Source of the DNA: Ostreococcus lucimarinus
Lineage: Eukaryota
Strand: one strand, 5' to 3'
NCBI GenBank assembly: GCA_000092065.1
Contig: CP000588.1
Length of the DNA: 64,000 nucleotides
Shown: positions 14,634-64,000 of the stretch, piece after piece
Numbering within the stretch: position 1 is the first letter of the stretch
Layout of the letters: every line of letters begins with the position of its first letter
Position numbers and translations under genes: made by a program
The notes under the pieces: generated by a model
What the model was told of the DNA's origin: nothing
Database searches by the model: none
Seen by the model: the letters and a program-made list of their open reading frames with translations, nothing else

Positions 14634-14728
14634 TATTTTAGCGTGTTTGGGTTGGCGATGATGTAAACCGTAGTTTGTTGTGCATATATGAAGAATTCTT
14701 GTTTAAGTGACTACAACCTGTGCGCCGC

Positions 14729-16108: not shown

Positions 16109-16468
16109 CGCGAGCGTCGATATCGGATGCTCGACCGGTCGTGCGCGCGCGTGTGACGGCGCGGGCGCGAGTCGCGCGCGACGGATCGTCGTCCCAGCGC
16201 GATTTCGAACGAAACAATGATTTTGGCGGGAACCCGCGGACCGGGGCGGGGCGACACCGCGGCGACACCGCGGCGCGCGCGAGCGAGCGCGATGGTGCAC
16301 GCGAGCGGGACGAGCGACGTGGACGTGCGTGAACGAACGAACGCGCGGGCGACCGCGCGCGCGCGCGAGGAGCGCGAGCGCGAGCGCGACGCCGCGACGA
16401 CGACGGGGGCGGGAGACTGACGGGAACGGGAACGGGAACGCGCGCAGAGCTCGCAATTGCGAGTGAAG

Positions 16469-17711
16469 ATGACGGGACGACCGCTGCCGAGATGCGCGGA
16501 CGAAGAACTCGGGTTCGGGACGGTGCGCGCGCGATGCGAGGCGACGCGCGCGCGCGTTGGGCTTTGATTCGGGACGCGGCTTTGGTTTGTGCTTTGGTCG
16601 GGGCGACGCGAGGAGGCAAAAGGGGACGCGATGACCGATGACTGACGACGCGCGCGGGGACGATGTGAACGAACAGGTCATCACCGATCACATGTTGAAG
16701 ATTGAGTGGAACGTCGAGCGCGGTTGGAACCATCCGATGATTCTCCCGAGCGGACCGGTGGGGTTGCACCCGTTCGCGCACGTGTTTCATTACGCCGTGG
16801 AGTGCTACGAGGGCATGAAGGCGTACGTAGACAATAATGGATCGGTGCGATTGTTTAGGCCAGAGATGAACATGCAGAGATTTCGCGTCTCCGCGAAGCG
16901 AATGTCTCTCCCGGATTTCGACGGAGAGCAACTGCTAAAATGTATCGAAACGTTGGTTGACATAGACAAGGACTGGATTCCGAAGCAGAGAGGGTACTCT
17001 ATGTACCTGCGACCGGTGATTTTCTCCACTACGCCTTGGTTGGGCTTGACGCAGTGCGCGGAGGCGATGATTCTCGTGTTGTGCTGTCCCGTGGGGCCGT
17101 ATTTCAAGTCTGGATTCGTGCCGATTAAGTTGAGCGTCGACTCAAAGTACATTCGAGCGTGGCCTGGGGGCACCGGTAACGTCAAATCAGGCGGTAATTA
17201 CGGTCCTACGGTAATTTCTCAGGCCGCCGCGACCGCGAATGGGGCTTCTCAGTCGCTGTTCGTGTATGATAAGCACGAATACGTGACCGAGGCAGGGACG
17301 ATGAACATTTTCTTCCTCATTCGCAACGAGCAAGGGGTGAAACAACTCATCACGCCTTCGTTAAAAGATGGTACAATCTTGCCTGGAGTCACGAGGCAAA
17401 GCGTGATTGAGCTTAGCCAACAATGGAACGAATGTGAGACTGTAGAAAAGATGATTCCTTTCGCCGAGATCAAGGCGGCGTTTGAGAGAGGCGACGTGTT
17501 GGAAATCTTTGGCACCGGCACCGCCGCGGTGATCCAACCAATCAATGGTATCGTGTACGAAGGCAAGGAGTACAAACCGGTCGTTCCATTTGATGATTCG
17601 ATGCTTCAGGTTCGGCTCACGAATTTCCTCATCGGTGTGCAGTACGGAGACATCGATCACCCGTGGTCGCACGTCGTCCCACCCTCGACGACTTGGTCCA
17701 AACCCATGTGA
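16469..17711 (+). CDS. BCAT: Branched-chain amino-acid aminotransferase (class IV PLP). The simple model is ATG 16638..17711. An alternative model is join(16469..16522, 16677..17711).
   Basis: ITDHMLKIEWN...YEGMKAY...LFRPEMNMQRF match BCAT. Two consecutive perfect intron signatures lie upstream: branch GACTGACGG at 16431 plus CAG at 16440-16442, and a donor GTGCGCGC at 16523 with branch GACTGACG at 16639 plus CAG at 16674-16676. This makes the ATG at 16638 possibly intronic. TGTAA at 17811. Confidence 0.8.
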
Positions 17712-18992: not shown

Positions 18993-20390
18993 CTAATCGA
19001 ATAGAGCGAACGCGTCTGAGTCGTCCTTCGACCCTTTCGCACGGTTGTGGCTGTGCTTGTTCACGAACTCTGTCAACGTGAGCAACGCAGAATTTAGAAT
19101 TGCGCGCTCGGAGTTTATCAACTGAATTGCCAACTCAACACGCGGAGGCGAGACGCCGCCATCTATGTTTGTTTGCGAACGATACAAGCTCAAGCGCCGT
19201 TCAATCGCGAGCGAAATAACATCCGCAACCTCCGGCGTGAGCGTTGACGGGTTGTTTCCACGTATTTTCATTGTGTTGATTGCCGTAGAGACTGTTTCTA
19301 TGGCGTGTAGTGCGTCCGCATGCCGATTTGTGTGCCTAATTTTCTGAAACGCGTCCTCGCTCGCGACCAAGGTCCAGACCACCGCACAGAGCTCTTCACT
19401 AATAGCTTGCGATTTTGAAATCGAAAACGACGCATCTGGGGCACACACTTGCGTCCGTTCGAGCCATTCGAATCGTTTTGTCAGCTGTGTCCCAGAACAC
19501 ACGCCTGCTAACGCCGCTTCGGTGCGAATGTTCGTAGTCGTCAGTCGCACTTCGTCCGCTGGATTGTCGTTTTGAGTGAATCCATAACTATTGAGTAGCT
19601 TCGCGTTCCCATGAAATCCATACGTGTTAAAAATCTCATCTCCACGGCGGACGCCTTGCTCGTTCGTCACCTTCACGCACAATGCCTCACCACCAGTCTC
19701 TGAACGCACGACGGCATCGCCATCGCCCACGTTGACGTGATGGTTGCCGGTGAGATGGTTAAACGCATCGGCAATCGGCACCAACCCAACGCCCGCGTTC
19801 GGGCTTAAAGTGAACGCGCGACTACTCACTACAGTACGCGCTTCGATAAATTGCTCGAACGAACACTCTACGCCGTGCTCCTTAAATACTGGCGCGACGA
19901 CGCGTTCCCACTCGTTCTTTGCAGCCGCCGCCTCGTCCCTGAGAGAAGTTTCGACTTCCGTGCCCGCGAGATAGCTCCGCTCGCCATCGTTCCACGCGCA
20001 CACGACGTTAGCTTCACACCTCGGTAACACTCTATCGTACGCGAAGTACCGCGACTTCAACCCGAGAGAACGCTCCACGCAAAGCGCCGCCGTCAACCCG
20101 CACAACCAACTCGCCTCTGTCTTCGTCTTCACTAAAGCCTCCTCCACGCTCGCCGCCACGTCCGCGCGCGAACACGTCTTCAGCGTCAAGCACGCTTCGA
20201 ATGGGATCACCGCCAAAATAGCGCCGCGCTCGAGCGCGCGCTTGGCCGTCACGCCGCGGTCCTTGTTCGCCTTTTGCACGGCAAAAGTGAATTCAACGTC
20301 ATCCTCGCGCACTTCGATCGCGTTCGCTCGACACCATCGCAAAAAAGCGTCGAACGCGTCATCGTTCGCCTCGTCACCGTTCTCTTTCAT
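18993..20390 (-). CDS. SET-domain protein lysine methyltransferase (RBCMT/SETD6-like)
   Basis: FNH...GDEIFNTYGFHGNAKLLNSYGFTQ... is a SET core with a Rubisco-LSMT-like substrate-binding region. ATG at 20390 confirmed. Confidence 0.7.
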   Translation of the reverse strand: MKENGDEANDDAFDAFLRWCRANAIEVREDDVEFTFAVQKANKDRGVTAKRALERGAILAVIPFEACLTLKTCSRADVAASVEEALVKTKTEASWLCGLTAALCVERSLGLKSRYFAYDRVLPRCEANVVCAWNDGERSYLAGTEVETSLRDEAAAAKNEWERVVAPVFKEHGVECSFEQFIEARTVVSSRAFTLSPNAGVGLVPIADAFNHLTGNHHVNVGDGDAVVRSETGGEALCVKVTNEQGVRRGDEIFNTYGFHGNAKLLNSYGFTQNDNPADEVRLTTTNIRTEAALAGVCSGTQLTKRFEWLERTQVCAPDASFSISKSQAISEELCAVVWTLVASEDAFQKIRHTNRHADALHAIETVSTAINTMKIRGNNPSTLTPEVADVISLAIERRLSLYRSQTNIDGGVSPPRVELAIQLINSERAILNSALLTLTEFVNKHSHNRAKGSKDDSDAFALFD

Positions 20391-20480: not shown

Positions 20481-20796
20481 TCACGCCTTCCACAGTGATT
20501 TCACCGTTCGCGTGATCCCGTCGCCCTGCGTGTTCAATTTAAACAATCCCACCGCCGTCGCCGCCGTCAGCGCGAGCGTCGCCGCTCTCGTCGGTCCTCG
20601 CGCCCCCTTCGGCACGTAATCGCTGATGATCTGCGTCCCGTCGCCCGCGCGCCGCTCGTCAGTCAATCGTTCCCCATCGCATCGCGCGCGTCGTCGATGC
20701 GCCGAGTCCCGCGCGCGTCCCGCGCGCGCGGTGCCCGCGTGCGATCCCGTCCGCGCGATGGCGTCCGATTTCGCATCGATCACGCACGAAATTCAT
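20481..20796 (-). CDS. Candidate small single-pass membrane protein of about 53 aa with a 9-nt start micro-exon. Two exons: join(20796..20788, 20630..20481).
   Basis: ATGAATTTC followed by donor GTGCGTG. The 157-bp intron has branch GACTGACG (+ coordinates 20657-20664) 24 nt before CAG. Exon 2 encodes IISDYVPKGARGPTRAATLALTAATAVGLFKLNTQGDGITRTVKSLWKA with one transmembrane helix. No homolog recognised. Confidence 0.3.
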
Positions 20797-29115: not shown

Positions 29116-30261
29116 CTAGTCTAAGCTGACTTCTAGAAGGCCTGCCTGACGTTCGCTGAATCGCCAGTGGTGTTCCTGTAAGAAGGTTTCAACTGCAACG
29201 GGAAGCCGAGAAGGCGTTCTCGACCCGACGGTGTGATGCCCAGTCCCCACTAAAATTTGCGCATGCGAACATCCACTACCGCGGAGCCTAGACAATTCGC
29301 GGCGTAGAAGGGACAATGCTTCTGCAACGTGTAGACCGTGCAAATCGATCACGCCGTCGCTACCGCCACCTCTGCTATGATAAATGTTGTGTGCGGCCTG
29401 CGCATGGGCCTGAGACATCTTTGCCGCAGCCTCGCGGCCTTGACGAGATAACTCTTTAGCCAAAGCTTTGTTACCGCTCAAGTACGCATTCGTAGCTTGC
29501 TCGTAGCATACATTTCGCACTCTGGCGTAGTCGCGCGCCTCGTCTCGATTTGCGGCGTAAAGCTGCGACACCGCGGCTCCCGTTTCTACCCACTCAATCT
29601 TCGTCTTTGTACCATCCCGTACGCCTCGCTCAATCTTACCACTCGCCGAAACCGATGCCGTCTCCGTTTTTGTCGCTCGTGTGTTCCAATTCACCGACGC
29701 AGACGCTTTATTGACGTTCGACATTCCACCCGAAAGGAATATTTTCTTTGGCAGTGGTTCTGGCGCTCGAGGCGCGGACGTGGACGTCCCGCCGCCACCG
29801 CCTCCAAGCGATGGAAACGCCTCTGCGTCGTCCACGTCCGGAGCGGGTATATCGGGTATCTCATCGTCCATCAACAGCTCCATGGCGAGCTCGACATCGC
29901 CCCCAGTATTCATCAACGCCTCCTCCAAACACGCCCAGTCCATGTTTGGGAACATGTCTCCCAAAAAGGTGAGAGAGTCATCGAAATCGCTCGGCGACGG
30001 CTCTTCGCCTGCGAGAGCGGCGTAAGGCTCGATCGGCCTTTCTCCACCGCTCGAAGCGAAAGCACTCTCGTCCGCGGCATCGACGGCGTTCTCGTCGTCC
30101 TCCTCGTCCTCGCTCACCAGGCCGAGCGCACCGAACTCGTCGACGACTTTTTCCAAACGAACTGGAGGCGTCGCTGGACGTCCGCGCGGCTTGAACACGA
30201 ACGCCGACGCCGACGGATTCAGCGCCGACGCGCTCGTTTCTGGGCCGTCGTTCCCGGACAT
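29116..30261 (-). CDS. CUE-like/DUF1771/Smr-domain protein (Cue2/N4BP2-family endonuclease)
   Basis: The C-terminus VIDLHGLHVAEAL...ILVGTGHHT is an Smr domain, preceded by a DUF1771-like helix. A CUE-like LEEALMNTGGDVELAMELLM lies mid-protein. ATG at 30261. Confidence 0.7.
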   Translation of the reverse strand: MSGNDGPETSASALNPSASAFVFKPRGRPATPPVRLEKVVDEFGALGLVSEDEEDDENAVDAADESAFASSGGERPIEPYAALAGEEPSPSDFDDSLTFLGDMFPNMDWACLEEALMNTGGDVELAMELLMDDEIPDIPAPDVDDAEAFPSLGGGGGGTSTSAPRAPEPLPKKIFLSGGMSNVNKASASVNWNTRATKTETASVSASGKIERGVRDGTKTKIEWVETGAAVSQLYAANRDEARDYARVRNVCYEQATNAYLSGNKALAKELSRQGREAAAKMSQAHAQAAHNIYHSRGGGSDGVIDLHGLHVAEALSLLRRELSRLRGSGCSHAQILVGTGHHTVGSRTPSRLPVAVETFLQEHHWRFSERQAGLLEVSLD

Positions 30262-31521: not shown

Positions 31522-33183
31522 ATGGCTTCGCGGGACGCGCTATACGAGGGCCGATCGATCGCGCGCGGCGATCGATCGATCGATCGATCGCGCGGTCGGT
31601 CGCCGCGCGCGGTTGACCGACCGACGCGCGCGGTGGGCCGCGAGAGCGCGACGCGACGTCGCGCGATGACGGCGGACGACCGAGGGTGGTGCGCGTACCC
31701 GAGCGAAGCGAAACGCGATCCCGCGAGCACGCTCGATCTGCCGCGCGGCGAGGACGACGGGAACGCCGCGTCGAGGGCGTCGAGAGTCGCGATGACGCGA
31801 GTCAAGGTGCCGAGCGCGTGCTGCGAGTTCGACGAGGACGCGACGGATGGGGGCGAAGCGGACGAGGATGGGTTGATCGAGGTGGACGTGACGATCGACG
31901 TCGATCGGGGGATGATCGAAGGCGTGCGCGAGTCGACGAGCACGAGGACGAGGACGGTGGGGGAGGAGGAGACGGCGGATTACGCGGAGAGCGACGAGGA
32001 CGAGGACGGCCGTCGCGGGCTTCGAGTGGCGATGGGCGGGAGGATGTGCTTACCGACGTTCGTGGACATACACACACATATAGATAAGGCACACACGTGT
32101 GAGAGGAGCCGAAATTTAAACGGCACCCTCGCTGGCGCGGACGCCGCGTGCGCGAACGATTTCCAACACTGGACGCTCGAAGACGCCAAGCGGCGCATGG
32201 GCTTTGCGATTCAGTGCGCGTACGCGTACGGGACCTCCGCCATGCGCACGCACTTGATGTCGGGTGAGGAGAGACAGAGCAAAATCGCCTGGGAAGCGTT
32301 CGGGAAGTTACGCGAGGAATGGAGAGGGAAAGTTGAGTTGCAAGGCGTGTCACTCTCGGTGTTGAGCTTTTTCCGCGACGAGACCAAGGCGCGCGCGCTG
32401 GCTCGCATGGTGAAATCTTATGGAGGTATACTTGGCGCCGCCGTGTCGTGTAGCGATGCAGGTGGTACACCACTGGATGTCCACACGACGTGCGGTGCCG
32501 ATATGCCCAAGTTATTGGACGTCATTTTCTCTCTGGCGAAGGAATACAATTTGGATGTCGACTTTCATTGCGACGAGAACGGCAATGAATCCTCCAAAGG
32601 CTTGCTCCACATTTCTGAGGCCGTCATTCGAAACAATTTCAAAGGATCTGTGGTGTGCGGTCACTGCTGCAGTCTCGCAGTTCAGCCAAACGAACAGGCA
32701 AAGCGCATCATCGACGCCGCCCGCGAAGCGGGCGTCACCGTTGTTTCGCTTCCAATCGTTAACCAATGGCTTCAAAATCGTGATCCAACGAACGAAGCGA
32801 CGCCAACGCGGCGAGGCGTTACTCGGGTGAAGGAGCTTGCCCGAGCTGGCGTGCCGGTGTGCCTTTCGAGTGATAATACGCGAGATCAATTTTTTCAATA
32901 CGGTGACTGTGATATGCTCGAGGTATTTCGATCGAGCGTTTGCATCGCGCATCTCGATCGACCTTTTGGATCGTGGCCGTTGGCTTTAGCTGCGAACCCA
33001 TCGCGCGCGATGCGACTTGGCGAAAAGTCGGGAATGATTGCTCCAGGAGCGAAGGCAAACTTTGTCTTGTTTCGCGCTAGGAATTACAGCGAGCTGTTTT
33101 CTAGATCGCAACATGATCGAGTCGTCATTCGTGATGGTGTCCGCATCGCTACTGCTTTACCAGATTATGAAGAGCTAGACTAA
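31522..33183 (+). CDS. Bacterial-type cytosine deaminase-like amidohydrolase (CodA family) with a long low-complexity N-terminal extension
   Basis: CLPTFVDIHTHIDKAHT is the CodA metal-binding HxH motif, followed by downstream amidohydrolase motifs (FHCDE, HCCSL). The first roughly 170 aa are R/D/E-rich and unrelated. The true ATG is uncertain. TGTAA at 33237. Confidence 0.7.
   Translation: MASRDALYEGRSIARGDRSIDRSRGRSPRAVDRPTRAVGRESATRRRAMTADDRGWCAYPSEAKRDPASTLDLPRGEDDGNAASRASRVAMTRVKVPSACCEFDEDATDGGEADEDGLIEVDVTIDVDRGMIEGVRESTSTRTRTVGEEETADYAESDEDEDGRRGLRVAMGGRMCLPTFVDIHTHIDKAHTCERSRNLNGTLAGADAACANDFQHWTLEDAKRRMGFAIQCAYAYGTSAMRTHLMSGEERQSKIAWEAFGKLREEWRGKVELQGVSLSVLSFFRDETKARALARMVKSYGGILGAAVSCSDAGGTPLDVHTTCGADMPKLLDVIFSLAKEYNLDVDFHCDENGNESSKGLLHISEAVIRNNFKGSVVCGHCCSLAVQPNEQAKRIIDAAREAGVTVVSLPIVNQWLQNRDPTNEATPTRRGVTRVKELARAGVPVCLSSDNTRDQFFQYGDCDMLEVFRSSVCIAHLDRPFGSWPLALAANPSRAMRLGEKSGMIAPGAKANFVLFRARNYSELFSRSQHDRVVIRDGVRIATALPDYEELD
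31545..31583. repeat. (CGAT)5-6 palindromic microsatellite in the TauE/amidohydrolase divergent spacer
   Basis: Direct reading of gcgatcgatcgatcgatcgatcgcg. Confidence 0.9.
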
Positions 33184-35803: not shown

Positions 35804-37543
35804 TTACAACGCCGCCTTCTTAGCTGCTTTTGCTTTTTGATTGTGATGCTTGTGTGTAAAATCTTTTGCAGTCAGTCCTCTCGTTTGTCGTCCGCCAGAC
35901 CCTCTTCCTCCGCGACCGGCACCCCCGTTTGCCCTGGGTTGTTCTTTGGCCGAAGCACTTGTCGACAATCCCCTTGGCGTGAAAGGTACCGCGCTTGTGC
36001 TCGGGGTGAATGCTGAATCGAACCGTGACTTATTTCCACCCGCACCGAGTCCTTCTATCTCGTTTCTTTTCGTTTTTTCTTGGGCCAGGGCGATCGTTGA
36101 CGCTTCCTCTGCGCTATGCGCGAAGATTTTCTCGGCGCCGGCTTTGTGGGAGTGATAGACTTTGCCGTCGGCCACATAGAAGACACGCTTCGATGCGTTT
36201 GCACGTTCTTTGCGACCGTCTCCATCTTCTAATTCGTCCGTACCGAGCGTGACGTTCGCTACTTGCACTGGGAGATCGTCGAATGAATCATCGTATTCAT
36301 CCTCGTATTCCAAATTGCGCGCTGCCTTCAGCACTCGCTTCTTATCTTCCACTGAAAGTTCGAGGTCAGCTTCCTTGTTCAATCTCTTGCCAACGGGTAT
36401 ACTGGGCTGAGGACGACTCCGCCAGGTCAACTTTGACGCGGGTGGCGGCCATCCCAGCTGTCTATCAAGCGACCGCAAATCAGGCGGAAGCGACTCCTCA
36501 AACAAATGCTGCACAATTGACTCAGCGTTGGGACCAAAATGGTCTACGCATGCCTTAAGAAACCCAATGCCGACATCGGGTAGGATGATTCTAACAGATT
36601 CAATCGTGTTCACGACCACTGGAGCCAGTCCTACGTACTTATCGCGCTCTGCATCCACGGGTTCTCCATCTCCTCCTCCTCCTCCTCCTCCTCCTCCTCC
36701 TCCATCTGCACTTCTCAGAAAGGAAATTGCCGCGCCTAAAGAACCTCTCACCGTATCTAAACTATCACTATCGCAAGTTGCCATGGACTGGAAGCTAGAA
36801 AGTACCATACTTCGGATCTTTTCGAGCGCACCTGTCAGATTCCCATCACGACGCAACCATTCTGCGGCTTCTGGATACACGGTGACGAGTGAAACAAGTG
36901 AAATAGCAACGTCGTGAAAGTATGACAGCGATTCACTCAACCCGTCTGGTGGGAGCTCGTTAGCTTCAGCCGCAGGAGTCACTCGCGCTGCCATATCTTT
37001 CAAGTTCTTTTCGATCATCAATCCAGTGCGCCCAAAATCGTCTTCGAGAGTCGGCAACAGTTTCACAGCATTTTCTAGCACTTCGTGCACTAGATCCCTG
37101 TTATCGCTTCCATAAATCACCGTCAAGTCAATCAATTTCGGTACGTCGATCAGGTTATGCTTTAAAACCGCCTGCCTCCGCTCTTCGAGAGTTAAGCAGC
37201 TTCGCTCTCGAGCGCCGTCATTCACCAGTCTGAGCATCGTGAGGAAGACCTTCCTTCCCAACTCGTCCTCCGTAACTGAAGTCGACGGTTCGGCCCCCCG
37301 ACCTCGAGTTTCGAATGGCCGCGTTTTAAACTGCAAGTACGTGTCCAGACTCCTCCCGAGCCCTCGTCCGTTTCTCTGCACGTGCGCCCAAAACGCTTCA
37401 CTCGTCTTTCGCAGCGCACTATCGAGGGCGTCCACTAGCGCTTGACACGCCTCCGTAGCGCGCTCGTCCAAAGGATCGTCGTCGCCGGGCAGATAGGAGA
37501 TGTACGTCACCGTCGCTGGCGCGACGCGTGACGCGCGTGACAT
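35804..37543 (-). CDS. CUE-domain protein, possibly ASCC2-like, with a poly-Gly tract
   Basis: IESVRIILPDVGIGFLKACVDHFGPNAESIVQHLFEESLP is a CUE domain. The ORF track 5' extension to 37957 is antisense to HGH1. The first plausible ATG is at 37543. Confidence 0.45.
   Translation of the reverse strand: MSRASRVAPATVTYISYLPGDDDPLDERATEACQALVDALDSALRKTSEAFWAHVQRNGRGLGRSLDTYLQFKTRPFETRGRGAEPSTSVTEDELGRKVFLTMLRLVNDGARERSCLTLEERRQAVLKHNLIDVPKLIDLTVIYGSDNRDLVHEVLENAVKLLPTLEDDFGRTGLMIEKNLKDMAARVTPAAEANELPPDGLSESLSYFHDVAISLVSLVTVYPEAAEWLRRDGNLTGALEKIRSMVLSSFQSMATCDSDSLDTVRGSLGAAISFLRSADGGGGGGGGGGGDGEPVDAERDKYVGLAPVVVNTIESVRIILPDVGIGFLKACVDHFGPNAESIVQHLFEESLPPDLRSLDRQLGWPPPASKLTWRSRPQPSIPVGKRLNKEADLELSVEDKKRVLKAARNLEYEDEYDDSFDDLPVQVANVTLGTDELEDGDGRKERANASKRVFYVADGKVYHSHKAGAEKIFAHSAEEASTIALAQEKTKRNEIEGLGAGGNKSRFDSAFTPSTSAVPFTPRGLSTSASAKEQPRANGGAGRGGRGSGGRQTRGLTAKDFTHKHHNQKAKAAKKAAL
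36671..36703. repeat. (TCC)11 microsatellite, equal to (GGA)11 on the coding strand. It encodes a Gly run inside the ASCC2-like gene.
   Basis: Direct reading of tcctcctcc... Confidence 0.95.
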
Positions 37544-37682
37544 CCCACGCGTCCGACGGCGCGCCTCGAAGTATCGACGGACGCGAGTGCGCGCTGTAGG
37601 CGCGCACGCGCTCGCGGGCGAAGGCGGCACAGTCAGACGTGCGCGCTGCGTCCCGTCGAGGACGACATCCGCGCTAGAATTC

Positions 37683-38732
37683 ATGGCCGACGAACTCGAC
37701 GAGGTGATCGGGTTTTTGTCCGATAAGAACCCGGCCGTGCGAGAGCAGGCGGCGCACATCATCCAAGGCTTGACTGGAACGGATGACGGCGCAAAGTTAC
37801 TGTGCGCTAAAGCCGACTCACTGGTGCCAAAACTGTTGCACGCGCTCGGCAAAGAAGGCGCAGAATCAAAGTATGCCGCGACAGCGCTGGTAAACTTGAC
37901 GCACGACCCGGAGGTGATCGTCAAGGCTGTGAACAAGGGTGTCGTGGAGCGAGCCATGGACGGGCTTCGCGATGGCGACGGTGCACCGGTAGACCTCTTG
38001 CTGTCTATTTTAGCGAACGTGACGACGGCGGAGAGCGGTGTACACGTGATAAGTCAAGAGGGTAAGCCACTAGAAGGATTTTACGTGTCAAAGTTGATCC
38101 AACTCTTGTCCACCGGAAAGCCGGAGGAAGACTACGACCATGCCGCGTCAGTCTTGACAAACATCTCGCGCGACCCGATCGGTCGACGAGTCTTCTTAGA
38201 TCCGAAGCGAGGATTGTTAGCATCAGTTGTTTCAATTATGAGTGAATCGAACGACCTCAGACGTGAGCGTGTCGCAGCGGCGTTGCGGAATTGCTGCATG
38301 GATGACATTCAGCGTAAAGCGCTTTTGGACTTTGTCAGCCCAGGTGCACAGGAGGCAGCAGGGGATGTCCTACGCGCGCTCCTTCGGCCGATCAGCGGGA
38401 AGCAGGTCGGAGCAGAATTATCTGATCATGTTCGTCAGGCCTGTGCGGAAGCGATCTACGCGTTGGCGAAAGACGAAGAAGGCCGGATGTGGCTTGGCAA
38501 GTTGGACGCTCCTCGGACTCTGCGAGACGGATACGAACTTGAGGAACACGCAGAAACTTGTGCTGCATTGGTTGCCGCCGGAGATTTGTTCCTGAAGCAC
38601 GGCATGGTGCCCGAAGACCTTCAAGAAGGCTTGAATCAGCCGCAAGCCGTCGAAGTGATTGACGATGACGAAGCCGTGGTCATGATGGGACCAGGCGTTG
38701 GTGGTGGTGGATTTATTAGTGGCGTGGATTGA
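37683..38732 (+). CDS. HGH1: HGH1 (FAM203/Brp16) ARM-repeat protein
   Basis: MADELDEVIGFLSDKNPAVREQAAHIIQGLTG matches the HGH1 N-terminus, with ARM-like repeats through the protein. ATG at 37683. Confidence 0.7.
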   Translation: MADELDEVIGFLSDKNPAVREQAAHIIQGLTGTDDGAKLLCAKADSLVPKLLHALGKEGAESKYAATALVNLTHDPEVIVKAVNKGVVERAMDGLRDGDGAPVDLLLSILANVTTAESGVHVISQEGKPLEGFYVSKLIQLLSTGKPEEDYDHAASVLTNISRDPIGRRVFLDPKRGLLASVVSIMSESNDLRRERVAAALRNCCMDDIQRKALLDFVSPGAQEAAGDVLRALLRPISGKQVGAELSDHVRQACAEAIYALAKDEEGRMWLGKLDAPRTLRDGYELEEHAETCAALVAAGDLFLKHGMVPEDLQEGLNQPQAVEVIDDDEAVVMMGPGVGGGGFISGVD

Positions 38733-41741: not shown

Positions 41742-42736
41742 TTACGGCTTGGTCGAAACCTTCACCATCGAAGCACGGATGAGGCTACTACCGATCTTAT
41801 AGCCCTTTCTGAATTCTTCAATGATGGTATCTTCATCCATCTCGTCGTTCTCTTCCCGCATGATAGCCTCATGGTCGTTCGGGTCGAACGGTTCACCGAC
41901 GCCCGCGACGACTTGGAGGCCTTGCGATGAAAGAATTTCCATCAACTGCTTGTGCATGTTTTGATATCCCGTCAATATCTTCTCCTCACCTTCGGTCGAA
42001 CCCTTGATATTCTTCTCTGCGAGGTCAAAGTTATCGAGCACGGGCAAGAGAGCCTTGACAAAGTCCCCCTTGGCGCTGCTCGCGAGGTTCTCCTTTTCCT
42101 TGAGCGTTCGCTTGCGGAAGTTGTCGAAGTCTGCGTTCAAACGCAAGTATTGATCCTTCATCGCGGCCACTTGGTCTTCCATACCGACCATCTTTGCGTT
42201 TGCATCACCGATTTCTCCCTTGAGGGAGGCCACAAGCTCCGCTGCGTCGGCGTTATCGCCGACGACGACCTCGAGTCGACCGACGAGCGCGCTCAACGCG
42301 GTCTCCTCTTCTTCCGCACCTCCTGCGACTTCTTCGTCGTCCTCGACGACTTCAACTTCGGGCACTTCTTCTTCAGTCTCAACAGTTTCACCCTGCGCGG
42401 TGCGAGAACACGCGTTGTTTCGTCAGTCGTTCGTTCGTCCTCGTCGACCGATACCCTCGTCGCCCCGCTCCCTCGTCGCTCGCCCGTCTAATCCTCGATC
42501 CCTCGCGCGCCGTCGGCCTCGCGCGTCGCCCTCGAGTCTCGCCACGCGTCGTTCTATCGCACCTCTTCTTCCCCCGCGCGCGCGATGATCTTCATCGCTC
42601 GCGCCTCGCGCGTCGCCCCCGAAGGTGTCGAACACGCTCGAAGATTCATCTTCGCGCGCATCGTCGTCGTCGTCGTCGTCGCGCGGGCGCGCGCGCGCGC
42701 GGGCGCCGACGCGATCGAGATCGTGATCGCGGACAT
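41742..42736 (-). CDS. GRPE: GrpE nucleotide-exchange factor, organellar. Two exons: join(42736 or 42659..42563, 42392..41742).
   Basis: NADFDNFRKRTLKEKE...KALLPVLDNFD...EFRKGYK...RASMVKV is GrpE. The 170-bp intron (42393-42562) has donor GTGCGAT and branch GACTGACG. Exon 1 encodes a presequence. Start-codon choice is ambiguous and a (GTC)7 tract sits at 42660-42680. Confidence 0.8.
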
Positions 42737-46579: not shown

Positions 46580-46840
46580 CGCGTGACGCTCGCGTGCGGG
46601 GGCACGCGAGCGTTCGCGCCGGTTCGTTGGATGTCCCGCGGCTCTTCGAGTCGCGTACGAATCCCTCGCGCGCCGTCTACGACGGCGTCGTCAATCGTCG
46701 AACGCACGCGCGGTCGGCGATAACACTCCCTACGCGTCGTTTCCCGCCCCGCGGTGGGTGGACGGTGGACGGCCTTCGTGCGCACTGCCGCGTAATGCCG
46801 CGCCCGACGCGACGGCAAGTCCCCCTGTCCCTCGACGCCC

Positions 46841-47140
46841 TCGACGGGGTCGATCGACGGGGTCGATCGATACGATCGACCGAATGCTTCGACGCGATCG
46901 ACGCGATCGATCGATCGGATACGATCGACGTCGATCGACGTGATCGATCGATCGAATGTTTGACGCGATCGACGTCGATCGATGCGATCGATCGATCGGA
47001 TACGATCGACGTCGAACGACGTGATCGATCGATCGAATGCTTCGACGGGATCGACGTCGATCGACGCGATCGATGCGATCGAACGATCGAACGCGATCGA
47101 ACGATCGGATGCGATCGACGGGATCGACCGAACTCGATCG
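46841..47140. repeat. Minisatellite of about 2.3 copies of an 81-82-bp unit built from TCGATCGA/CGATCG palindromes. It lies in the 770-bp divergent spacer between RCC1 and iPGAM.
   Basis: cggatacgatcgacgtcga(t/a)cgacgtgatcgatcgatcgaatg(t/c)tt... recurs at 46910 and 46991, with partial copies on both flanks. Confidence 0.85.
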
Positions 47141-47350
47141 ATCGACGGCGCACCGTTCCCCTCGCGACGTTCGCGAAAGCGCGGCCGTCCAACCTCAGAG
47201 CGTCGATCGATCGACCTCGCGATCCGGACAAAGGAAATCGGGTGTTTGCCCTAGCCCTCCGAAAAGTACCGAACGCGCCGCCCTCTCTCACGCGCGGGGC
47301 GCGTGGCGTCGCACTTCATCGCGCGCGCTCGAAGACGACGGGGAACGATC

Positions 47351-49262: not shown

Positions 49263-50713
49263 ATGTCCACCACCGTCAAGTCTTGGGACGAACTTCGCGC
49301 GTCCCACACCGCGTCGACGTCGAGCTGCGTGAAACGGCTGACGGAAGACGCGCAGGCGCGCGCGCGCGGCGGTGGACCGGCGCATCAGGACAACGCGCTG
49401 CGATTGTTCGGCGCGCGCGAGGAGGACGTGCGGGTGACGTTTTATCGCGACCACGCGGGGGTGCGTGCTGAAGCGACGCGCCGTCGCGTCGGCGCCCCAG
49501 CGCGCCGCCCGAGCGCGCGGTTTGGATTTGGCGATTCGCGGCGAACGGAGAACGAAAGACTGACGCACGAACGCTCTCACTCGCGCAGTGGTGCCCGTAC
49601 TGTCAAAAGCTTTGGATCATGCTCGAAGAAAAACAAATCCCGTACCGAGTGGAGAAGATCAACATGCGATCGTACGGCGATAAACCAAAGGCGTTTCTGG
49701 ACAAGATTCCGAGCGGGCTGTTGCCGGTGGTGGAGATCGACGGGAATATGATCACGGAGAGTTTGGTCATCATGCAAATCCTCGAACGCGAGTTCCCGGA
49801 GCGACCGACGCTTCCCGAGGATAAGTTTGAGGCGGCGAACGTGCTTTTGAAGCTCGAACGTCAGTTGTTTTCGGATTGGTGCGGCCTCGTGTTTCGGCCC
49901 TCGATGCCGGGACCGCTGGGAGCGAGAGCGGGATTCGAAAAGACGTTGGACAAGGTCGACGAAGCGCTCGGCTCTACGGAAGGACCATGGTTTCTCGGGG
50001 GAGAAAGTCCAAGCATTGTGGACTTTCAGTACGTCTCGCACGTCGAGCGCATGAACGCGAGCGTTCTGTATTGGAAGGGACTGCAAATGCGCGGCACAAA
50101 GCGTTGGGCCAACATAGAAAGGTGGCTCCTCGCGTTTGAGGCGAGACCGACGTATCAGGCGACAAAGAGCGACTACTACACGCACATCATGGATATCCCA
50201 CCTCAATATGGACCGGGATACGCCGATAAAAACGCCGCGGTGGACGAAGCTGTGGCGGTCATCGGCGGCGAAAAGAGTTGGCGATTACCGGTTTCTCTAT
50301 CTGCTGACGGCTTGGAGCCGCTTCCGGAATCTATGAACCGAGGTGAAGAGGACGCAAAGCATGAAGCAGCGTATAAACTGATTGCAAACTCTGCAAATAT
50401 CGTCAAGTTTGCTTGCAGAGGTATGGGCGAGCCAGGTCGCAAGCAGTTCGGTGCTCCGCTCGCGGATCCTTATGCGGTCCCGAATTTAAACTACGAAAGT
50501 CGCGTCGATGAATGCTTGCGAAAGGTGGCGCAGGCTCTGATCGAGGGTACCGCCGAGCCATCGGAACCAAGTTCGAATACAAGCTCGGAGGCGAAATCCG
50601 TTCGTAAATGTCTAGCATACCTGCGCGATCGCGTCGGGGTCCCGCGAGATATGAGCTATCCCGCGGCGATGCAACTCAGAGCGCACTTAAACTGGTGCGC
50701 CGACTCGCTTTAG
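49263..50713 (+). CDS. GST-superfamily thiol transferase with a glutaredoxin-like CPYC active site. Two exons: join(49263..49460, 49589..50713).
   Basis: Exon 1 reads ...RLFGAREEDVRVTFYRDHAG. Exon 2 starts WCPYCQKLWIMLEEKQIPYRVEKINM..., followed by a GST C-terminal domain. The 128-bp intron has donor GTGCGTG and branch GACTGACG. Confidence 0.75.
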
Positions 50714-55600: not shown

Positions 55601-56347
55601 TGAGCGCGGTTTGCCCGCCCATCGTCGGCAACAAGGCGTCCGGCTTTTCGCGCGCGATGATTTGCTCAACGCTCTCCGGCGACATCGGCGTCACATACGT
55701 GCGACTCGCCGTCTCTGGATCCGTCATAATCGTCGCCGGGTTCGAGTTCACGAGCACGACTTCGTATCCTTCGGCGCGCAACGCCTTGCACGCCTGGGTC
55801 CCAGAGTAATCAAACTCGCACGCCTACCAAAGTTCAAACTCGCACCACCGTCAGTCTTTCCGCGCCCGTGTCGAGACGACGAACGAAACACAATTAATTC
55901 TCACTAAACCGTTCGCGCCAATCCCCCGAAGCGTCGCTACCCCGCGCGTCGCTCCCTCGCGATCGCCCCCGCCGCGGTTTGAATATTTAAAAACGCGCCC
56001 GCGCTCGCGTTCGCGATCACCCCCTCCCATCCCGCGCCGTTCGCCTCTCCTCCCTCCCCGAGCGCGTCATCGCGCGCGCGCACCTGTCCGATCACGATCG
56101 GTCCCGCGCCCAGGATCATGATCTTCTTCAAGTCGGTTCTCTTTTGGCTCTTCGTCGCCTGATCCCACGCTCGAAAAACCTCGCTCTCGCCACCCATCGC
56201 GCGCGCCGCGTTCGCGACGCCGCGTTTGAGCGCGTTCGGGCGCGCGTTTCCGCGACTCGCGCGTTTCTTCTCGCGCGTGATCGAGTTTTTCCGCGCGAAC
56301 TCGCGTCGGAGCGCGACGCGCGCGGGGGCGAGCGCCATCGTCGCCAT
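52620..56347 (-). CDS. carB: Carbamoyl-phosphate synthase large subunit (CarB-type), plastid-targeted. Two exons: join(56347..56084, 55823..52620).
   Basis: Exon 1 carries the presequence plus [15 protein letters not shown]. Exon 2 starts [31 protein letters not shown] and runs through both ATP-grasp halves and the MGS domain. The 260-bp intron (55824-56083) has donor GTGCGCGC and branch GACTGACGG. Confidence 0.9.
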
Positions 56348-57646: not shown

Positions 57647-57934
57647 ATGAGTTCTGGCGAACACGAAATCGTTCGCTCGGGGACGTGTTTTTGCGAACAC
57701 GCCAAAGTCACGGTCACTGGATCCCCAGTGGCGGTGAGCATATGTCACTGCACGATCTGCCGCAAGCTCTGTGGGGCGCCGTTCTCCGCACAAGCGCTGT
57801 GTAAGGCGGAGCAAGTGAAGATCGAGCACGAGGGCGAACCGACGGCGACGGCTTCGAGCGCAAACGTTGATCGATGCCGGTGCGCAAAGTGTGGAAGCCC
57901 GATATACGCATCGTTGATGAAGGTACGACCGTAG
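57647..57934 (+). CDS. Gfa/CENP-V-family zinc-binding domain protein
   Basis: GTCFCEHAKV...ICHCTICRKLCGAPFS...CRCAKCGSP shows the Gfa-like cysteine pattern. ATG at 57647. Confidence 0.55.
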   Translation: MSSGEHEIVRSGTCFCEHAKVTVTGSPVAVSICHCTICRKLCGAPFSAQALCKAEQVKIEHEGEPTATASSANVDRCRCAKCGSPIYASLMKVRP

Positions 57935-58322
57935 ATTGAAAATTAGAATTCGCCACCGTCATCGCGACGAAGCCGACTGACGCGCGTCGTCGCTTGAAAA
58001 ACAGGGAAAAATGATCGCCGTACCGCTCTCCGTGCTCAATACGCGCGCGAGCGACGACTTGAAGCCGACGCATCACATGTACTACGGACAGAGAATCGTG
58101 GAATGCGCGGGGGATGGTTTGCCCAAATTTTTAAAATCCAAGGGCGAGCTCTGGACGCCCGAAAGCGACGCAATGATGTAACAACAAAGCCCAAGCCCCC
58201 GAGCCCACCCAAGCCAGAGCGAAGCGAAGCACGAAGCGACGCACCGCCGCCGTCATTCGACGCCGCTCCGCGCGCGCGCCGTCGGGAATTCGCGCGACGC
58301 GCACGGACAGAGCGCGGTAATC

Positions 58323-59701
58323 ATGGGTGGGGGTTTAGGTACGTCGTTCGTCCGTCGTCGTTTCGTTCGTTCGTTCGCGTGCGGCCGCGTGGGTGCCGCT
58401 CGAAGACGTGAGAATCGTCTCAACTTTTGCGGCGACTGACCGCGCATTTTCGTTCGTTTGCGACAGCTTTTTTGCACAAGAAATCATGGCATACCGCGGG
58501 TATGGCGGTGCAGGAAGACGTGTGGAAGCGGGAGCAGCAGGCGGAGCACGAAAAACGACGGCTGGAGGAGATGAAGAAGGAAATTGAAGACGAGCGCAAG
58601 CAGGCGGAAATGAAAGCGGAGGCGGTTGCGTCGGGTCACGTGATGAAACCAACGCAAGAACGCTTGGAATTCATGTATAAAGGACGCGTTGGGGAAGCTG
58701 CTCCGGCTCCAGTATCTGTAGACGAGCGCGTGATTGGTAAGAAGCGGTTCGAGCTCGCGGTGGAGGAAGGGGCCAACTTGGCGGCGCAGGCAGAGGAGAG
58801 GCAGGAAGAGGCGCACTCGAAGAACGAAGCCTGGAACAGACTGAATGCCGATCCGTTGTTAGTGATGAAGCAGCGCGAGTTGCAGTCAAAGCAGTACATC
58901 ACGAATAATCCGGTGAAAATGGCACAATTGAAGGATGAAAGCCGGGCTGAGAAGGAGCGGAGGCGAGCAAAAAAGGAGGCAAGACGAGACAAAAAGCGTT
59001 CGAGCAAACGCGATAAACGCAGTAGAAAATGCGACTCAAGCTCGGAGTCGAGATCTCGCAGTAGAAGTCCGAAGAGAGAGCGTCGTAGACATCGTTCGCG
59101 CTCGCCACGTCACCGTAGTAGGCGCTCGCGATCCCGTTCTCGGTCTCGCAGCAGAAGCCCGAGGCGGTCAGACAGGCGAAGTAGAGACGATCGCGACCGA
59201 CGTGATCGACGCGATTTACGAGACAGCCGTGGCTATGACGACAAGTACGATCGTAAGAGGCACCGTGATGGAATTGCTCGCGACGATGCGCACGCACAAG
59301 ATGCGTCAAAAGGATTCGGGTTGACGTATGCCCATGAAACAGCCGAGGATGCGGCGGCTATTCGGCGAGGCAAACGATCAAAATGGCGCGAAGAAGAGGC
59401 AAAACGCGCGGCAGAGCGCGCACCAGAGCCGGAATGGCGAGGTGGAAACAACGCTGGTCATAGAACGGGAAGATTGACCGCTGAAGAAAAAGCCGCGCGA
59501 CTAGCCGCAATGTCGGCGGATGCTTCAGCGCACGACGAGGCGAGGATTTCAAAACTGCGCAAGAACGTCGGAGAATTAGGTGAAGAGATGAGTTTCGTGG
59601 AGGAAGCGGCGCGAGGACCCGATAGACACCATTCAGATGCGCCTGCGTTCATCGCGAAAGCGCGTTCATCCGTGTATGGCGAGCCGTCGTCAAGACGTTA
59701 G
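58323..59701 (+). CDS. CWC25: Pre-mRNA splicing factor CWC25 with an RS/RD-rich C-terminus. Two exons: join(58323..58338, 58467..59701), with a 16-nt start micro-exon.
   Basis: Spliced N-terminus MGGGLAFLHKKSWHTAGMAVQEDVWKREQ matches Cwc25 MGGGDLNLKKSWHP...VWKAEQ. The intron 58339-58466 has donor GTACGT and branch GACTGACC. TGTAA at 59725. Confidence 0.75.
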
Positions 59702-60627: not shown

Positions 60628-61418
60628 CCTGTTCGCTCGAAATAATCACCGCGGTCAGTCCAAGGCTCGTTGTGCGGCGGTAATCCAGCGCCACGCGCCG
60701 CGCTGATTATCCGCGCTTTTCCATCGCCGCGCATCGCCGTTCGCGTCGGATTCGCGCGCGGACGGTGGAGAGAATTTACGCGCATCGATCGCCCCGCGCG
60801 CGCGTCCACGCCCGCGCGCGCGCGCGCCGCGACGCGCGCGCCAACCCTCACCCAACCCATGGGTGCCTCGCGACCGCGGCGTTCGAATCCGCGACGCATC
60901 GCGCGCGTGCGCACCTCGTATCGCACCGCGCGCACGCGCACAGCGCGACGCCGGTTTGGGATTCCACGCGCACGACCGCCGCAGGGGCTTCCGCGCACGT
61001 TCCGCACATCACGTCCGGCATGACGCGCGAAAGATCGTTCGAAGTCGTCCGCGGACGGCTTTGCGTGTGCCGAAGTGCCGCGCGCGGTCGCGCGGCGTCG
61101 CGTCGCGTCCCGCGCGCGCTTCGTCGAGTCATGATCGGTCGATCGACCCACTCGAAAACCCACACTGAATCCGATCCCAAACGAGCGGCCGACGCGTTCC
61201 CGCGCGTTAGCGTTGATGGATAAGAATATACAGGGGGGACACGCGTTGAGTCACGATCGGCCGAACGACGCGCGGGAAAAAACTTTTTCCAAAAAAGGCG
61301 GCGCGAGGTCGTTAAATACGCGGGAAAAAGACGTTGGACTGTTGGAAAAGCGAAGCGCGACGGCGCGGTCGGTCGGTCGGTTGGGAGGGCGGCCGTCGTT
61401 GCAGAGACAAGGTTCTAT

Positions 61419-63780: not shown

Positions 63781-64000
63781 ATGGCGAGCGACGGCCGTGG
63801 GGCGGCGATCACGCAAGCGAAACTGGTGCGCGAGCGACGCGCGGGCGCGCTGACGCGACGACGCGCGCGCGTCGTCGGCGCGACGCGTTTTTCTCGACGT
63901 GAGATTCCGCCAACGACCTCGACTGACGACTGCTTGCGGCTCGCGACGACGCGCACAGGTGCTCCTGGGGGACATGGGGGCTGGGAAGTCATCGCTAGTG
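63781..64000 (+). CDS. RAB5: Rab5-family small GTPase (RABF/Rha1-like), 3'-truncated at the window edge. Two exons: join(63781..63825, 63959..>64000).
   Basis: Spliced product MASDGRGAAITQAKL|VLLGDMGAGKSSLV matches the Rab5/Rha1 N-terminus KLVLLGDxGAGKSSLV (G1 box). The intron 63826-63958 has donor GTGCGCG and branch GACTGACG 30 nt before CAG. Confidence 0.65.
   Translation, partial: MASDGRGAAITQAKLVRERRAGALTRRRARVVGATRFSRREIPPTTSTDDCLRLATTRTGAPGGHGGWEVIAS

Follow-up and report, generated by a model that had tools for sequence, protein, structure and literature searches.

A 16-nt first exon of CWC25 and the canonical intron signals of Ostreococcus lucimarinus

Where does the CWC25 gene of Ostreococcus lucimarinus begin, and do the signals around its first intron reveal the 5' ends of other genes as well? 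The original prediction held that the gene opens with a 16-nt micro-exon and that a single template describes every intron resolved nearby. We took up both claims in a window of 64,000 nt, the whole stretch of DNA analysed here (contig CP000588.1 of GenBank assembly GCA_000092065.1). The GC content of the window is 49-70%, and the 701,771-bp record to which it belongs is syntenic with chromosome 8 of O. tauri, where the genes of the corresponding locus (L002) are arranged in the same order. The window is nuclear DNA of O. lucimarinus CCE9901, whose GenBank proteins XP_001419360.1, XP_001419152.1 and XP_001419371.1 are identical to ORFs in it.

The 5' end of CWC25

The gene start comprises the following features.

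58323-58338, plus strand: exon 1, a 16-nt micro-exon ATGGGTGGGGGTTTAG coding for MGGGL and the first base of an Ala codon (phase 1)
58339-58466, plus strand: intron 1, 128 nt, U2-type, GT-AG
58339-58346, plus strand: 5' splice site, TAG/GTACGTCG, with the donor GTACGT, which fits the window consensus
58434-58441, plus strand: branch-site motif GACTGACC, with GACTGAC at 58434-58440
58464-58466, plus strand: 3' splice site, CAG/CT, the intron ending in GCGACAG
58467-59701, plus strand: exon 2, up to the stop codon, assigned from Pfam domains and homologues

Spliced, these exons form a CDS of 1251 nt that encodes 416 aa; the 3' splice site lies 27 nt away from the putative branch A (58439). Unspliced, the ATG frame runs into a stop after 38 codons. 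The frame of exon 2 is open from its first Met (58502) upstream to the acceptor, and because this interval contains no in-frame ATG, the residues AFLHKKSWHTAG can be translated solely after splicing. The resulting N-terminus, MGGGLAFLHKKSWHTAG..., is the conserved start of the CWC25 family. In fact, MGGG(D)L..KKSWH is common to animal (human), fungal and green-algal homologues, including the MMETSP transcript P0032, and the family pattern MGGG(D)L.(F)L.KKSWH is matched by the spliced product alone, as MGGGLAFLHKKSWH. Pfam Cir_N (PF10197) scores 47.4 bits against a gathering cutoff of 22.6, with profile positions 1-37 on residues 12-48, and Pfam CWC25 (PF12542) scores 51.8 bits against 31.4 on residues 69-154.

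The sister species is built in the same way. O. tauri CWC25 (CEG01504.1 / XP_022840998.1, 'Pre-mRNA splicing factor', CAID01000008.2) is identical to that of O. lucimarinus over its first 27 residues, and its CDS opens, at the annotated start, with ATGGGTGGAGGTTTAG (10001-10016 of L002). The 16-nt length of the first exon, the phase-1 position of the intron and the branch (TGACTGACCG) are shared, whereas the intron itself differs in length (156 versus 128 nt), in its donor (GTAGGT versus GTACGT) and in its diverged interior. The 16-nt exon also occurs, with synonymous differences, in relatives on three metagenome contigs (L009, L010, L011). Across five taxa it takes the form ATGGGNGGNGGNYTNG, always 16 nt long and with synonymous changes, next to diverged introns of 128-156 nt. 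Several Ostreococcus lineages thus share this gene start, as do two or three more distant relatives on metagenome contigs. RNA-seq validates 89% of the introns in the O. tauri annotation (Blanc-Mathieu 2014), and from this RNA-seq-guided model we infer that the CWC25 intron is also excised in O. lucimarinus itself.

Could CWC25 instead lack a micro-exon and begin at the internal ATG at 58502 (MAVQEDV...), with ATGGGTGGGGGTTTAG and the splice-like signals arising by chance in the 5' UTR? Prokaryote-style callers on metagenome contigs do yield such models (P0001, P0005, P0123). A search for transcripts across the junction 58338^58467, using two junction-spanning DNA patterns, also gave zero matches in JGI metagenome contigs, and the exact spliced 416-aa protein is absent from a collection of 15 billion proteins; the 399-aa protein that would start at the internal Met is likewise absent from it as an exact entry. 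However, AFLHKKSWHTAG, upstream of that Met and without an ATG of its own, lies within Pfam Cir_N and is conserved with O. tauri despite synonymous changes. Moreover, the short exon keeps its length, phase and peptide in the five taxa while the intron diverges, and the curated O. tauri model uses it. A start at 58502 is thus highly improbable. Sequence, reading frame, Pfam and the O. tauri annotation all bear out the claimed micro-exon, and we regard it as very probable that CWC25 truly begins with the flagged segment, its 5' end being made of a 16-nt exon, a 128-nt phase-1 U2-type GT-AG intron and the main exon, in the canonical class of Ostreococcus introns.

In U12-type introns the donor is /RTATCCTT, and the branch site, TCCTTRAC, lies 10-15 nt from the acceptor. 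With its donor GTACGTCG and its branch GACTGACC 27 nt from the acceptor, the CWC25 intron is not of this type.

A bolder idea is that the 16-nt exon and its intron act as a putative feedback sensor of splicing capacity. It is suggested by the fact that MGGGLAFLHKKSWH is encoded by the spliced mRNA alone, combined with an intron slightly below consensus (GTACGT, GACTGACC). In yeast spliceosome structures, the N-terminal segment of Cwc25 reaches the catalytic centre. Unspliced mRNA would give rise to a 38-residue peptide, or to a truncated protein from Met 18, and if the idea were true, a splicing factor could regulate itself through its own intron. We consider such a sensor very unlikely.

Intron signals across the window

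We found 16 introns in 14 of the approximately 44 genes of the window (about 0.36 per gene). Besides that of CWC25, they are:

3216-3446, minus strand: uncharacterised gene, intron of 231 nt predicted from grammar and reading frame; exon 1 of 66 nt, MGASKS...
7825-7988, minus strand: REI1, intron of 164 nt; exon 1 of 42 nt (8030-7989); spliced product of 322 aa, exactly XP_001419356.1
13282-13471, minus strand: profilin, intron of 190 nt; 15-nt micro-exon 1 (13486-13472, ATGTCGGGCTGGGAC); product exactly XP_001419358.1
15722-15871, minus strand: FtsZ, intron of 150 nt; donor GTGGGA, off template
16325-16447, plus strand: branched-chain aminotransferase (BCAT), intron 1 of 123 nt; exon 1 of 33 nt
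16523-16676, plus strand: BCAT, intron 2 of 154 nt; same contig evidence as for intron 1
20631-20787, minus strand: succinate dehydrogenase CybS subunit, intron of 157 nt; Pfam CybS spans the junction; product exactly XP_001419361.1
40568-40685, minus strand: sterol methyltransferase (SMT), intron of 118 nt, phase 1; spliced product of 372 aa, exactly MMETSP Transcript_3087
42393-42562, minus strand: GrpE, intron of 170 nt predicted from grammar and reading frame; junction in a low-complexity region; exon 1 codes for a presequence
49461-49588, plus strand: GST-like gene, intron of 128 nt; junction FYRDHAG/WCPYCQK; same position in the O. tauri ortholog
55824-56083, minus strand: carB (carbamoyl-phosphate synthase large subunit), intron of 260 nt; junction GAGPIVIGQ/ACEFDYSG; same position in O. 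tauri
57923-58004, plus strand: GFA-domain gene, intron of 82 nt at about 0.69 of the CDS, not 5'-proximal; also in L011
60199-60285, minus strand: B-box gene, intron 2 of 87 nt at 0.62 of the CDS
60629-60914, minus strand: B-box gene, intron 1 of 286 nt; exon 1 of 107 nt (61021-60915); same position in O. tauri
63826-63958, plus strand: Rab5, intron of 133 nt; exon 1 of 45 nt (63781-63825); junction QAKL/VLLGDMGAGKSSLV; the gene runs out of the window at its end

All 16 have GT-AG boundaries. GACTGAC stands 24-36 nt before the acceptor in every one of them, a count that is partly circular, since this motif was the search criterion and introns that lack it could have escaped. The extended branch form GACTGACG is present in 13. 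Donors of the form GT[AG]CG occur in 15/16 (FtsZ, with GTGGG, is the exception), 13 of them GTGCG and 2 GTACG, for a consensus of about G1 T2 [G13/A3] C4 G5 [T8/C5/A3]. GACTGAC is found 19 times in the window against an expected 9.2 +/- 3.0. The composite pattern, defined as a GT[AG]CG donor, GACTGAC and then YAG 12-38 nt on, has 16 sites, against 1.7 +/- 1.3 expected and a maximum of 7 in 300 dinucleotide shuffles. Fifteen of these sites are introns backed by other evidence or by the reading frame, a precision of about 15/16 within the window.

The composite site at 19546 (minus strand) was discarded as a false positive: it lies inside a SET-domain CDS whose uninterrupted product is XP_001419360.1. 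Chance matches account for GACTGAC at 38153 (minus strand), antisense to a DUF383 CDS, and at 35877 (minus strand), at the 3' end of a long ORF. When the other long ORFs were checked, not exhaustively, for an ATG and a complete Pfam N-terminus, no further motif-less intron was evident.

Pfam matches that become longer once the intron is removed, exact GenBank, MMETSP or Logan products, and positions common to O. tauri provide independent confirmation. On splicing, the start of the match moves from profile position 16 to 2 in profilin (Pfam Profilin) and from 42 to 2 in FtsZ (Pfam Tubulin), and the Pfam GFA match grows from profile positions 2-84 to 2-114; in carB, the junction falls within the Pfam CPSase_L_D1 match (profile positions 2-117). 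Two contigs (L007, L008), from the libraries SRR28369095 and SRR28369019, lack exactly the FtsZ intron segment; they may be RNA-derived or represent an FtsZ allele without the intron. BCAT is an uninterrupted 380-aa ORF on three mRNA-like Logan contigs (L004-L006), and the GenBank SMT model XP_001419368.1 spans the same junction as the MMETSP transcript. In the B-box gene, a donor ATGGGTTGG/GTGAGG for intron 1 was rejected as out of frame; comparison with O. tauri places it at GATACGAG/GTGCGC (60915/60914), and the spliced product, 241 aa, is exactly XP_001419373.1. The RNA-seq-guided O. tauri annotation contains, at shared positions, the introns of CWC25, GST, carB, B-box (two) and Rab5 (137 nt in the O. 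tauri ortholog). The O. tauri GFA ortholog is intronless and aligns colinearly over the junction. The spliced product of the 3216-3446 gene is absent from the protein collection.

Thus, the introns that the original prediction named in FtsZ, carB, GrpE, GST, SMT, profilin, REI1 and Rab5 are supported. (Of the junctions it gave as examples, 7988/7825 denotes the ends of the intron itself and the other two denote the flanking exon bases.) Its single template captures the common donor, branch and acceptor but not the FtsZ donor, GTGGGA, which is neither GTGCG nor GTACGT. The proposed lengths of 115-260 bp are too narrow for a range of 82-286 nt, and ATG-only micro-exons, said to be frequent, number zero in the window, where the smallest first exons measure 15, 16, 33, 42 and 45 nt.

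These signals are those of a published class. For O. lucimarinus introns that ESTs confirm and that lie outside chromosome 2, Irimia & Roy 2008 (PLoS Genet 4:e1000148, PMC2483917) reported ACTGAC in 87.2%, GACTGACG in 66.5% and an atypical 5' consensus, GTGCGTG; about 13% of these introns lack ACTGAC. The window likewise lies outside the low-GC, intron-rich part of chromosome 2, and the lengths of its introns are not of the short chromosome-2 type. Species, branch motif and strong donor are the same, and nothing essential differs. FtsZ has the donor GTGGGA, and the slightly off-consensus signals of CWC25 are minor variants, GTACGT versus GTGCGT and GACTGACC versus GACTGACG: the CWC25 donor GTACGTC agrees with GTGCGTG at positions 1, 2, 4, 5 and 6, and its branch contains ACTGAC with C, not G, as the eighth base.

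Related grammars exist elsewhere. In Micromonas, the donor is AG/GTGCGT, the branch NCTGAC, and most introns are found in the 5' part of their genes (Verhelst 2013, GBE 5:2393); the branch is, however, 43-52 nt from the acceptor in canonical Micromonas introns, compared with 24-36 nt in the window. As in other intron-poor eukaryotes such as hemiascomycete yeasts, introns are few and gather close to the start codon, many first exons are very short, and the donor and branch signals are near-invariant (Rogozin 2012; Irimia & Roy 2008). Unlike yeasts, which use GTATGT and TACTAAC, Ostreococcus uses GTGCGT and GACTGACG, and the density of about 0.36 per gene in the window is above that of yeast.

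How might a 16-nt exon be spliced at all? The canonical Ostreococcus introns combine a donor resembling GTGCGT with a YAG acceptor and, some 25-35 nt before it, a near-invariant (G)ACTGAC(G) branch site. These signals are unusually rich in information, as is typical of intron-poor genomes. Pairing with the U1 and U2 snRNPs can then suffice to define a short intron, whatever the neighbouring exon contributes, and such exon-independent definition would allow a first exon of only 16 nt to be tolerated.

Why introns lie near gene starts

The introns lie at a median of 141 nt from the ATG, and the first quarter of the CDS contains 12/16 of them (binomial p = 3.8e-5). The 5'-proximal placement that had been claimed for nearly all introns therefore stands as a strong bias, but not for the GFA intron (0.69) or the second B-box intron (0.62). 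That intron-poor eukaryotes carry their introns towards the 5' end is textbook knowledge, and the clustering seen here is an instance of it. The usual explanation is that 3' introns are preferentially lost by way of reverse-transcribed mRNA, that selection favours 5' introns, or both, the alternatives reviewed by Rogozin 2012 (PMC3488318).

The selective alternative, already an existing hypothesis, is that 5'-proximal introns are kept as expression-enhancing or regulatory elements and are not neutral survivors of 3'-biased loss; it concerns the cause of the pattern, not the anatomy of the genes. In O. lucimarinus, EST abundance is positively correlated with both the presence and the density of introns, highly expressed genes being enriched in introns (Lanier 2008, PMC2367439), and the strength of the position bias and the conservation of positions between Ostreococcus species point the same way. 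Against this, loss mediated by reverse transcription predicts the same pattern (Rogozin 2012, PMC3488318), the intron-bearing genes are mixed in function, and O. tauri has apparently lost the GFA intron while keeping the gene. Nor do the window introns host a known RNA: the search for snoRNAs and other RNAs gave no Rfam match at the gathering level, and the window contains no tRNAs. A regulatory role is therefore possible but, in our judgment, rather less likely than its absence.

Alternatively, the grammar could mark a mobile intron family, comparable to the introner elements of Micromonas and recently inserted near gene starts. Micromonas IE-C elements have the same GACTGACG branch motif (Verhelst 2013), and simple repeats, (CGAA)n and (GACGAC)n, are common to several window introns. 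Yet an all-against-all blastn of the 16 introns returned short low-complexity matches and none of full length, and of the eight introns in the region to which the O. tauri locus corresponds, six or seven sit at identical positions with diverged sequences. The position of the CWC25 intron is even common to more distant relatives. The marks of introner elements, full-length identity between copies and positions unshared with relatives, are thus both missing, and no such element was seen among the 16. We give a recent mobile origin next to no probability and read these introns as canonical Ostreococcus introns.

What the micro-exon means

The finding is correct but ordinary: the grammar was published for O. 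lucimarinus in 2008, and the same CWC25 structure is annotated in the sister species O. tauri. Contrary to the original prediction, the heuristic is hardly under-used, its signals having been described for this very species (Irimia & Roy 2008, PMC2483917). The many hidden 5' exons that it foresaw are mostly modelled already, with at least six of the introns in GenBank (profilin, REI1, B-box and CybS exactly; SMT by its junction). CWC25 itself is probably missing or wrong in the 2007 GenBank annotation of CCE9901. In the order of UniProt accessions, A4S1I3 to A4S1I5 leave room for only three of the four genes carB, GFA, CWC25 and the one at about 56.0-57.4 kb, so that one of them would be unannotated.

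Biologically, this locus adds one case to a pattern that is already well documented, and it raises no new question. Its use is practical. Prokaryote-style gene callers on marine metagenomes routinely truncate or read through 5' exons of this kind; in fact, each of the CWC25 models P0001-P0008 either begins at Met 18 or includes translated intron sequence. The published signal, a GTGCG donor, GACTGAC(G) and a YAG 24-36 nt past the branch A, could mend such gene models cheaply.

A 16-nt first exon in CWC25

The splicing-factor gene CWC25 had been predicted to open with a 16-nt micro-exon, and on re-inspection this description of 58323-58466 proved accurate:

58323-58338, + strand: CWC25 exon 1, ATGGGTGGGGGTTTAG, 16 nt
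58339-58466, + strand: CWC25 intron, 128 nt, starting GTACGTCG, with GACTGAC at 58434-58440 and ending GCGACAG

Joining 58338 to 58467 yields a 1251-nt CDS and a 416-aa protein with the N-terminus MGGGLAFLHKKSWHTAGMAVQEDVWKREQ, matched by Pfam Cir_N (profile positions 1-37 on residues 12-48) and Pfam CWC25. Without splicing, the ATG frame runs for 38 codons and then meets a stop. Between the acceptor and the first Met of exon 2 (58502), the exon-2 frame is open yet has no ATG, and thus the conserved residues AFLHKKSWHTAG can be translated only from the spliced upstream start. TCGT/TTCG repeats lie right behind the donor of this intron (58339-58466, + strand).

We found CWC25 homologues in animals, fungi, oomycetes and green algae by searching 5.8 billion proteins; their N-termini, including that of an MMETSP transcript (P0032), read MGGGDLN(L/M)KKSWHP or MGGGLAFLNKKSWHTG. 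The nearest relatives lie on metagenome contigs whose genes were called by prokaryote-style finders, and these models begin at the internal Met (P0001, P0005, P0006) or translate the intron as well (P0002, P0003, P0008, P0028). The curated O. tauri protein (CEG01504.1 / XP_022840998.1), a member of the P0005 cluster, has the N-terminus MGGGLAFLHKKSWHTAGMAVQEDVWKR, and its first 27 residues are identical to those of the spliced O. lucimarinus prediction. Its annotated CDS starts ATGGGTGGAGGTTTAG and is followed by a 156-nt intron (GTAGGT ... TGACTGACCG ... GCGCGCAG), at a phase 1 position common to both species. The O. tauri annotation is RNA-seq-guided and hand-curated, with 89% of introns RNA-seq-validated according to its authors (Blanc-Mathieu 2014, PMC4378021).

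The same exon/intron structure is repeated on three more contigs, from a third Ostreococcus lineage (L011), an AT-rich relative (L009) and a further relative with ~45% protein identity (L010). In all five taxa the 16-nt exon has the form ATGGGNGGNGGNYTNG with synonymous codon differences, and the introns (128-156 nt) are divergent except at donor, branch and acceptor. Purifying selection on a coding micro-exon is expected to leave this pattern. An O. lucimarinus transcript across the junction was not found, and JGI metagenome contigs gave zero matches in two scans with patterns that span it. The sequence confirms the observation, and from the splice logic, the homology and the recurrence of the same exon in five taxa, the micro-exon is almost certainly real.

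Introns of the window and their grammar

The window contains 19 copies of GACTGAC, where 9.2 +/- 3.0 would be expected. We examined each of the 19 sites and built spliced models, arriving at 16 introns spread over 14 genes. BCAT and a B-box gene have two introns each; REI1, profilin, FtsZ, sterol methyltransferase (SMT), GrpE, carB, CWC25, Rab5, the succinate dehydrogenase subunit CybS, a GST-like gene, a GFA-domain gene and an uncharacterised gene at 3.2-3.5 kb have one each. The introns of BCAT, CybS, GFA and B-box are additions to the original prediction. Since the introns were located through GACTGAC, the universality of the motif among the 16 is partly circular, and motif-less or UTR introns may have escaped. 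Every other long ORF was checked to see that its start is plausible and its N-terminal domain complete, and none showed an obvious missing exon.

The donors read G16 T16 [G13/A3] [C15/G1] G16 [T8/C5/A3]; GACTGAC is followed by G13/C2/T1, the branch A stands 24-36 nt from the acceptor, and the acceptor is [C12/T4]AG. Thirteen introns are in phase 0, with CWC25 and SMT in phase 1 and the first B-box intron in phase 2. The grammar is real: the composite pattern (GT[AG]CG donor, GACTGAC, YAG 12-38 nt later) has 16 sites, versus 1.7 +/- 1.3 expected and a maximum of 7 in 300 dinucleotide-preserving shuffles. It makes two errors, a false positive in a SET-domain CDS and a missed true intron in FtsZ. 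At the SET-domain site (19540-19546, - strand) the composite match is full (GTGCG donor, GACTGACG, YAG); the uninterrupted product is XP_001419360.1 and the matched region encodes the conserved GDEIFNTYG motif. We take this site as a false positive of the heuristic; conceivably, it is a cryptic or alternative intron.

A single template for every intron was nevertheless an overstatement, as the FtsZ donor (15866-15871, - strand) is CAG/GTGGGA, neither GTGCG nor GTACG and the sole one of 16 without C at +4. The predicted lengths of 115-260 bp were also too narrow, the observed range being 82-286 nt (median 152).

Individual introns were supported by several independent checks. Upon splicing, the Pfam match start moves from profile position 42 to 2 in FtsZ (Tubulin/FtsZ) and from 16 to 2 in profilin, and the GFA match grows from 2-84 to 2-114 of 115 positions; the carB and CybS junctions are crossed by CPSase_L_D1 and CybS matches, respectively. 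By exact look-up, four spliced products are GenBank proteins: profilin, with its 15-nt first exon (XP_001419358.1), REI1 (XP_001419356.1), the B-box protein with both introns out (XP_001419373.1) and CybS (XP_001419361.1). The SMT product after splicing is identical to an MMETSP transcript, and the GenBank SMT model crosses the same junction, its start codon being the sole difference. For BCAT, three short, mRNA-like Logan contigs, each from a different run, carry the spliced 380-aa reading frame uninterrupted, with both introns excised precisely where predicted. Two otherwise genomic-looking Logan contigs, L007 and L008 (SRR28369095, SRR28369019), encode the spliced 409-aa FtsZ; they are 99-100% identical to 13593-17608 and keep intergenic DNA and both BCAT introns, with exactly the 150-nt FtsZ intron missing. 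Whether they are assemblies derived from RNA or represent a natural intron-less FtsZ allele, the FtsZ junction is supported, and precise excision despite the odd donor is backed by both contigs. Intron positions are common to the O. tauri orthologs for GST, carB, Rab5 and both B-box introns. For GrpE and the 3.2-3.5 kb gene, the introns are predictions from the grammar plus an open reading frame.

We rejected introner elements as a source, full-length similarity among the introns being absent and positions being conserved with O. tauri. Short tandem repeats explain all weak similarity between introns. The profilin intron (13282-13471, - strand) holds about ten copies of CGAA, and the intron at 3216-3446 (- strand) a long (GACGAC)n run. 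The introns host no Rfam RNA family or tRNA.

Intron position

The median distance of the 16 introns from the start codon is 141 nt (median relative position 0.13), and the first quarter of the CDS holds 12 of them (binomial p = 3.8e-5; KS versus uniform p = 7e-5). The exceptions are GFA (0.69), B-box intron 2 (0.62) and CybS (0.54), although the CybS CDS is very short and its intron lies just 177 nt from the ATG. The smallest first exons measure 15, 16, 33, 42 and 45 nt. The ATG-only micro-exons that had been proposed were thus overstated, none being seen among the introns found in the window.

The GFA intron (57923-58004, + strand; 82 nt), of standard type and one of the few that are not 5'-proximal, is also present in the third Ostreococcus lineage (L011 ~400-490: GTACGT...CGACTGACC...AAAACAG). 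The O. tauri ortholog (locus L002, 9336-9803) is an uninterrupted ORF with colinear alignment across the junction. From this alignment, O. tauri seems to have lost the intron precisely.

Gene content and the 2007 annotation

The window carries a typical compact green-algal gene set (TIC20, RETICULATA, WRKY, FtsZ and carB among others, from Pfam scans of long ORFs), with about 44 genes counted in 64 kb. Of ten intron-free ORFs submitted to exact look-up, three are GenBank proteins of O. lucimarinus CCE9901 (XP_001419360.1, XP_001419152.1, XP_001419371.1), encoded on one 701,771-bp record. Gene order is shared with the O. tauri CWC25 locus (CAID01000008.2, chromosome 8): iPGM, GST, TRAPP, carB, GFA, CWC25, B-box, PXA/PX, Rab5.

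Two gene-poor stretches are unusually long for so compact a genome: 38730-39827 (~1.1 kb, GC lower at ~50%), where the DUF383 and SMT genes converge with their 3' ends, and 46580-47350 (~0.77 kb), from which the RCC1-repeat and iPGM genes diverge. An obvious gene is absent from both, as are Rfam and tRNA matches. With first ATGs, the ORFs at 35804-37957 (- strand) and 37500-38732 (+ strand, DUF383) overlap by ~450 nt (37500-37957), and at least one of them must start further downstream. The DUF383 gene call on sequence L001 is 381 aa long.

The original prediction presented the grammar as an under-used guide to hidden 5' exons and suggested a regulatory role for the 5'-proximal introns, which stays hypothetical. 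The evidence bears out this interpretation only in part. In fact, most of these exons are already annotated, in the GenBank record of CCE9901 or in O. tauri, and both the grammar and the 5' bias had been published before (Irimia & Roy 2008; Rogozin et al. 2012). The grammar is that described in the same strain by Irimia & Roy 2008 (PLoS Genet 4:e1000148; section 'The Peculiar Case of Ostreococcus'): among O. lucimarinus introns confirmed by ESTs and located outside chromosome 2, ACTGAC was found in 87.2% and the extended GACTGACG in 66.5%, with a 5' splice site of 4.8 bits and an 'atypical consensus GTGCGTG'. Canonical Micromonas introns carry AG/GTGCGT and NCTGAC (Verhelst et al. 2013). Introns of intron-poor unicellular eukaryotes are strongly over-represented at the 5' end, for which the two standard explanations are 3' intron loss via reverse-transcribed mRNA and selection for 5' introns (reviewed in Rogozin et al. 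2012). In O. lucimarinus, intron presence correlates with expression (Lanier et al. 2008).

Exact look-up found neither the spliced CWC25 protein nor the other plausible CWC25 model of CCE9901, starting at the internal Met, in the protein collection. Going by the order of UniProt accessions, the four genes at 52.6-59.7 kb have three slots between them (A4S1I3-I5). Taken together, the look-ups and the accession order indicate that the 2007 annotation may lack CWC25 or model it wrongly. The Smr-domain gene (29116-30261, - strand) is 279 aa in GenBank (XP_001419364.1) versus 381 aa for the uninterrupted ATG-to-stop ORF, exact copies of which occur on hundreds of contigs, and the amidohydrolase gene (31522-33183, + strand) is 379 aa (XP_001419147.1) versus 553 aa. 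These gaps suggest more imperfect models in that annotation. Once published facts are set aside, the small remainder is the possible CWC25 annotation gap.
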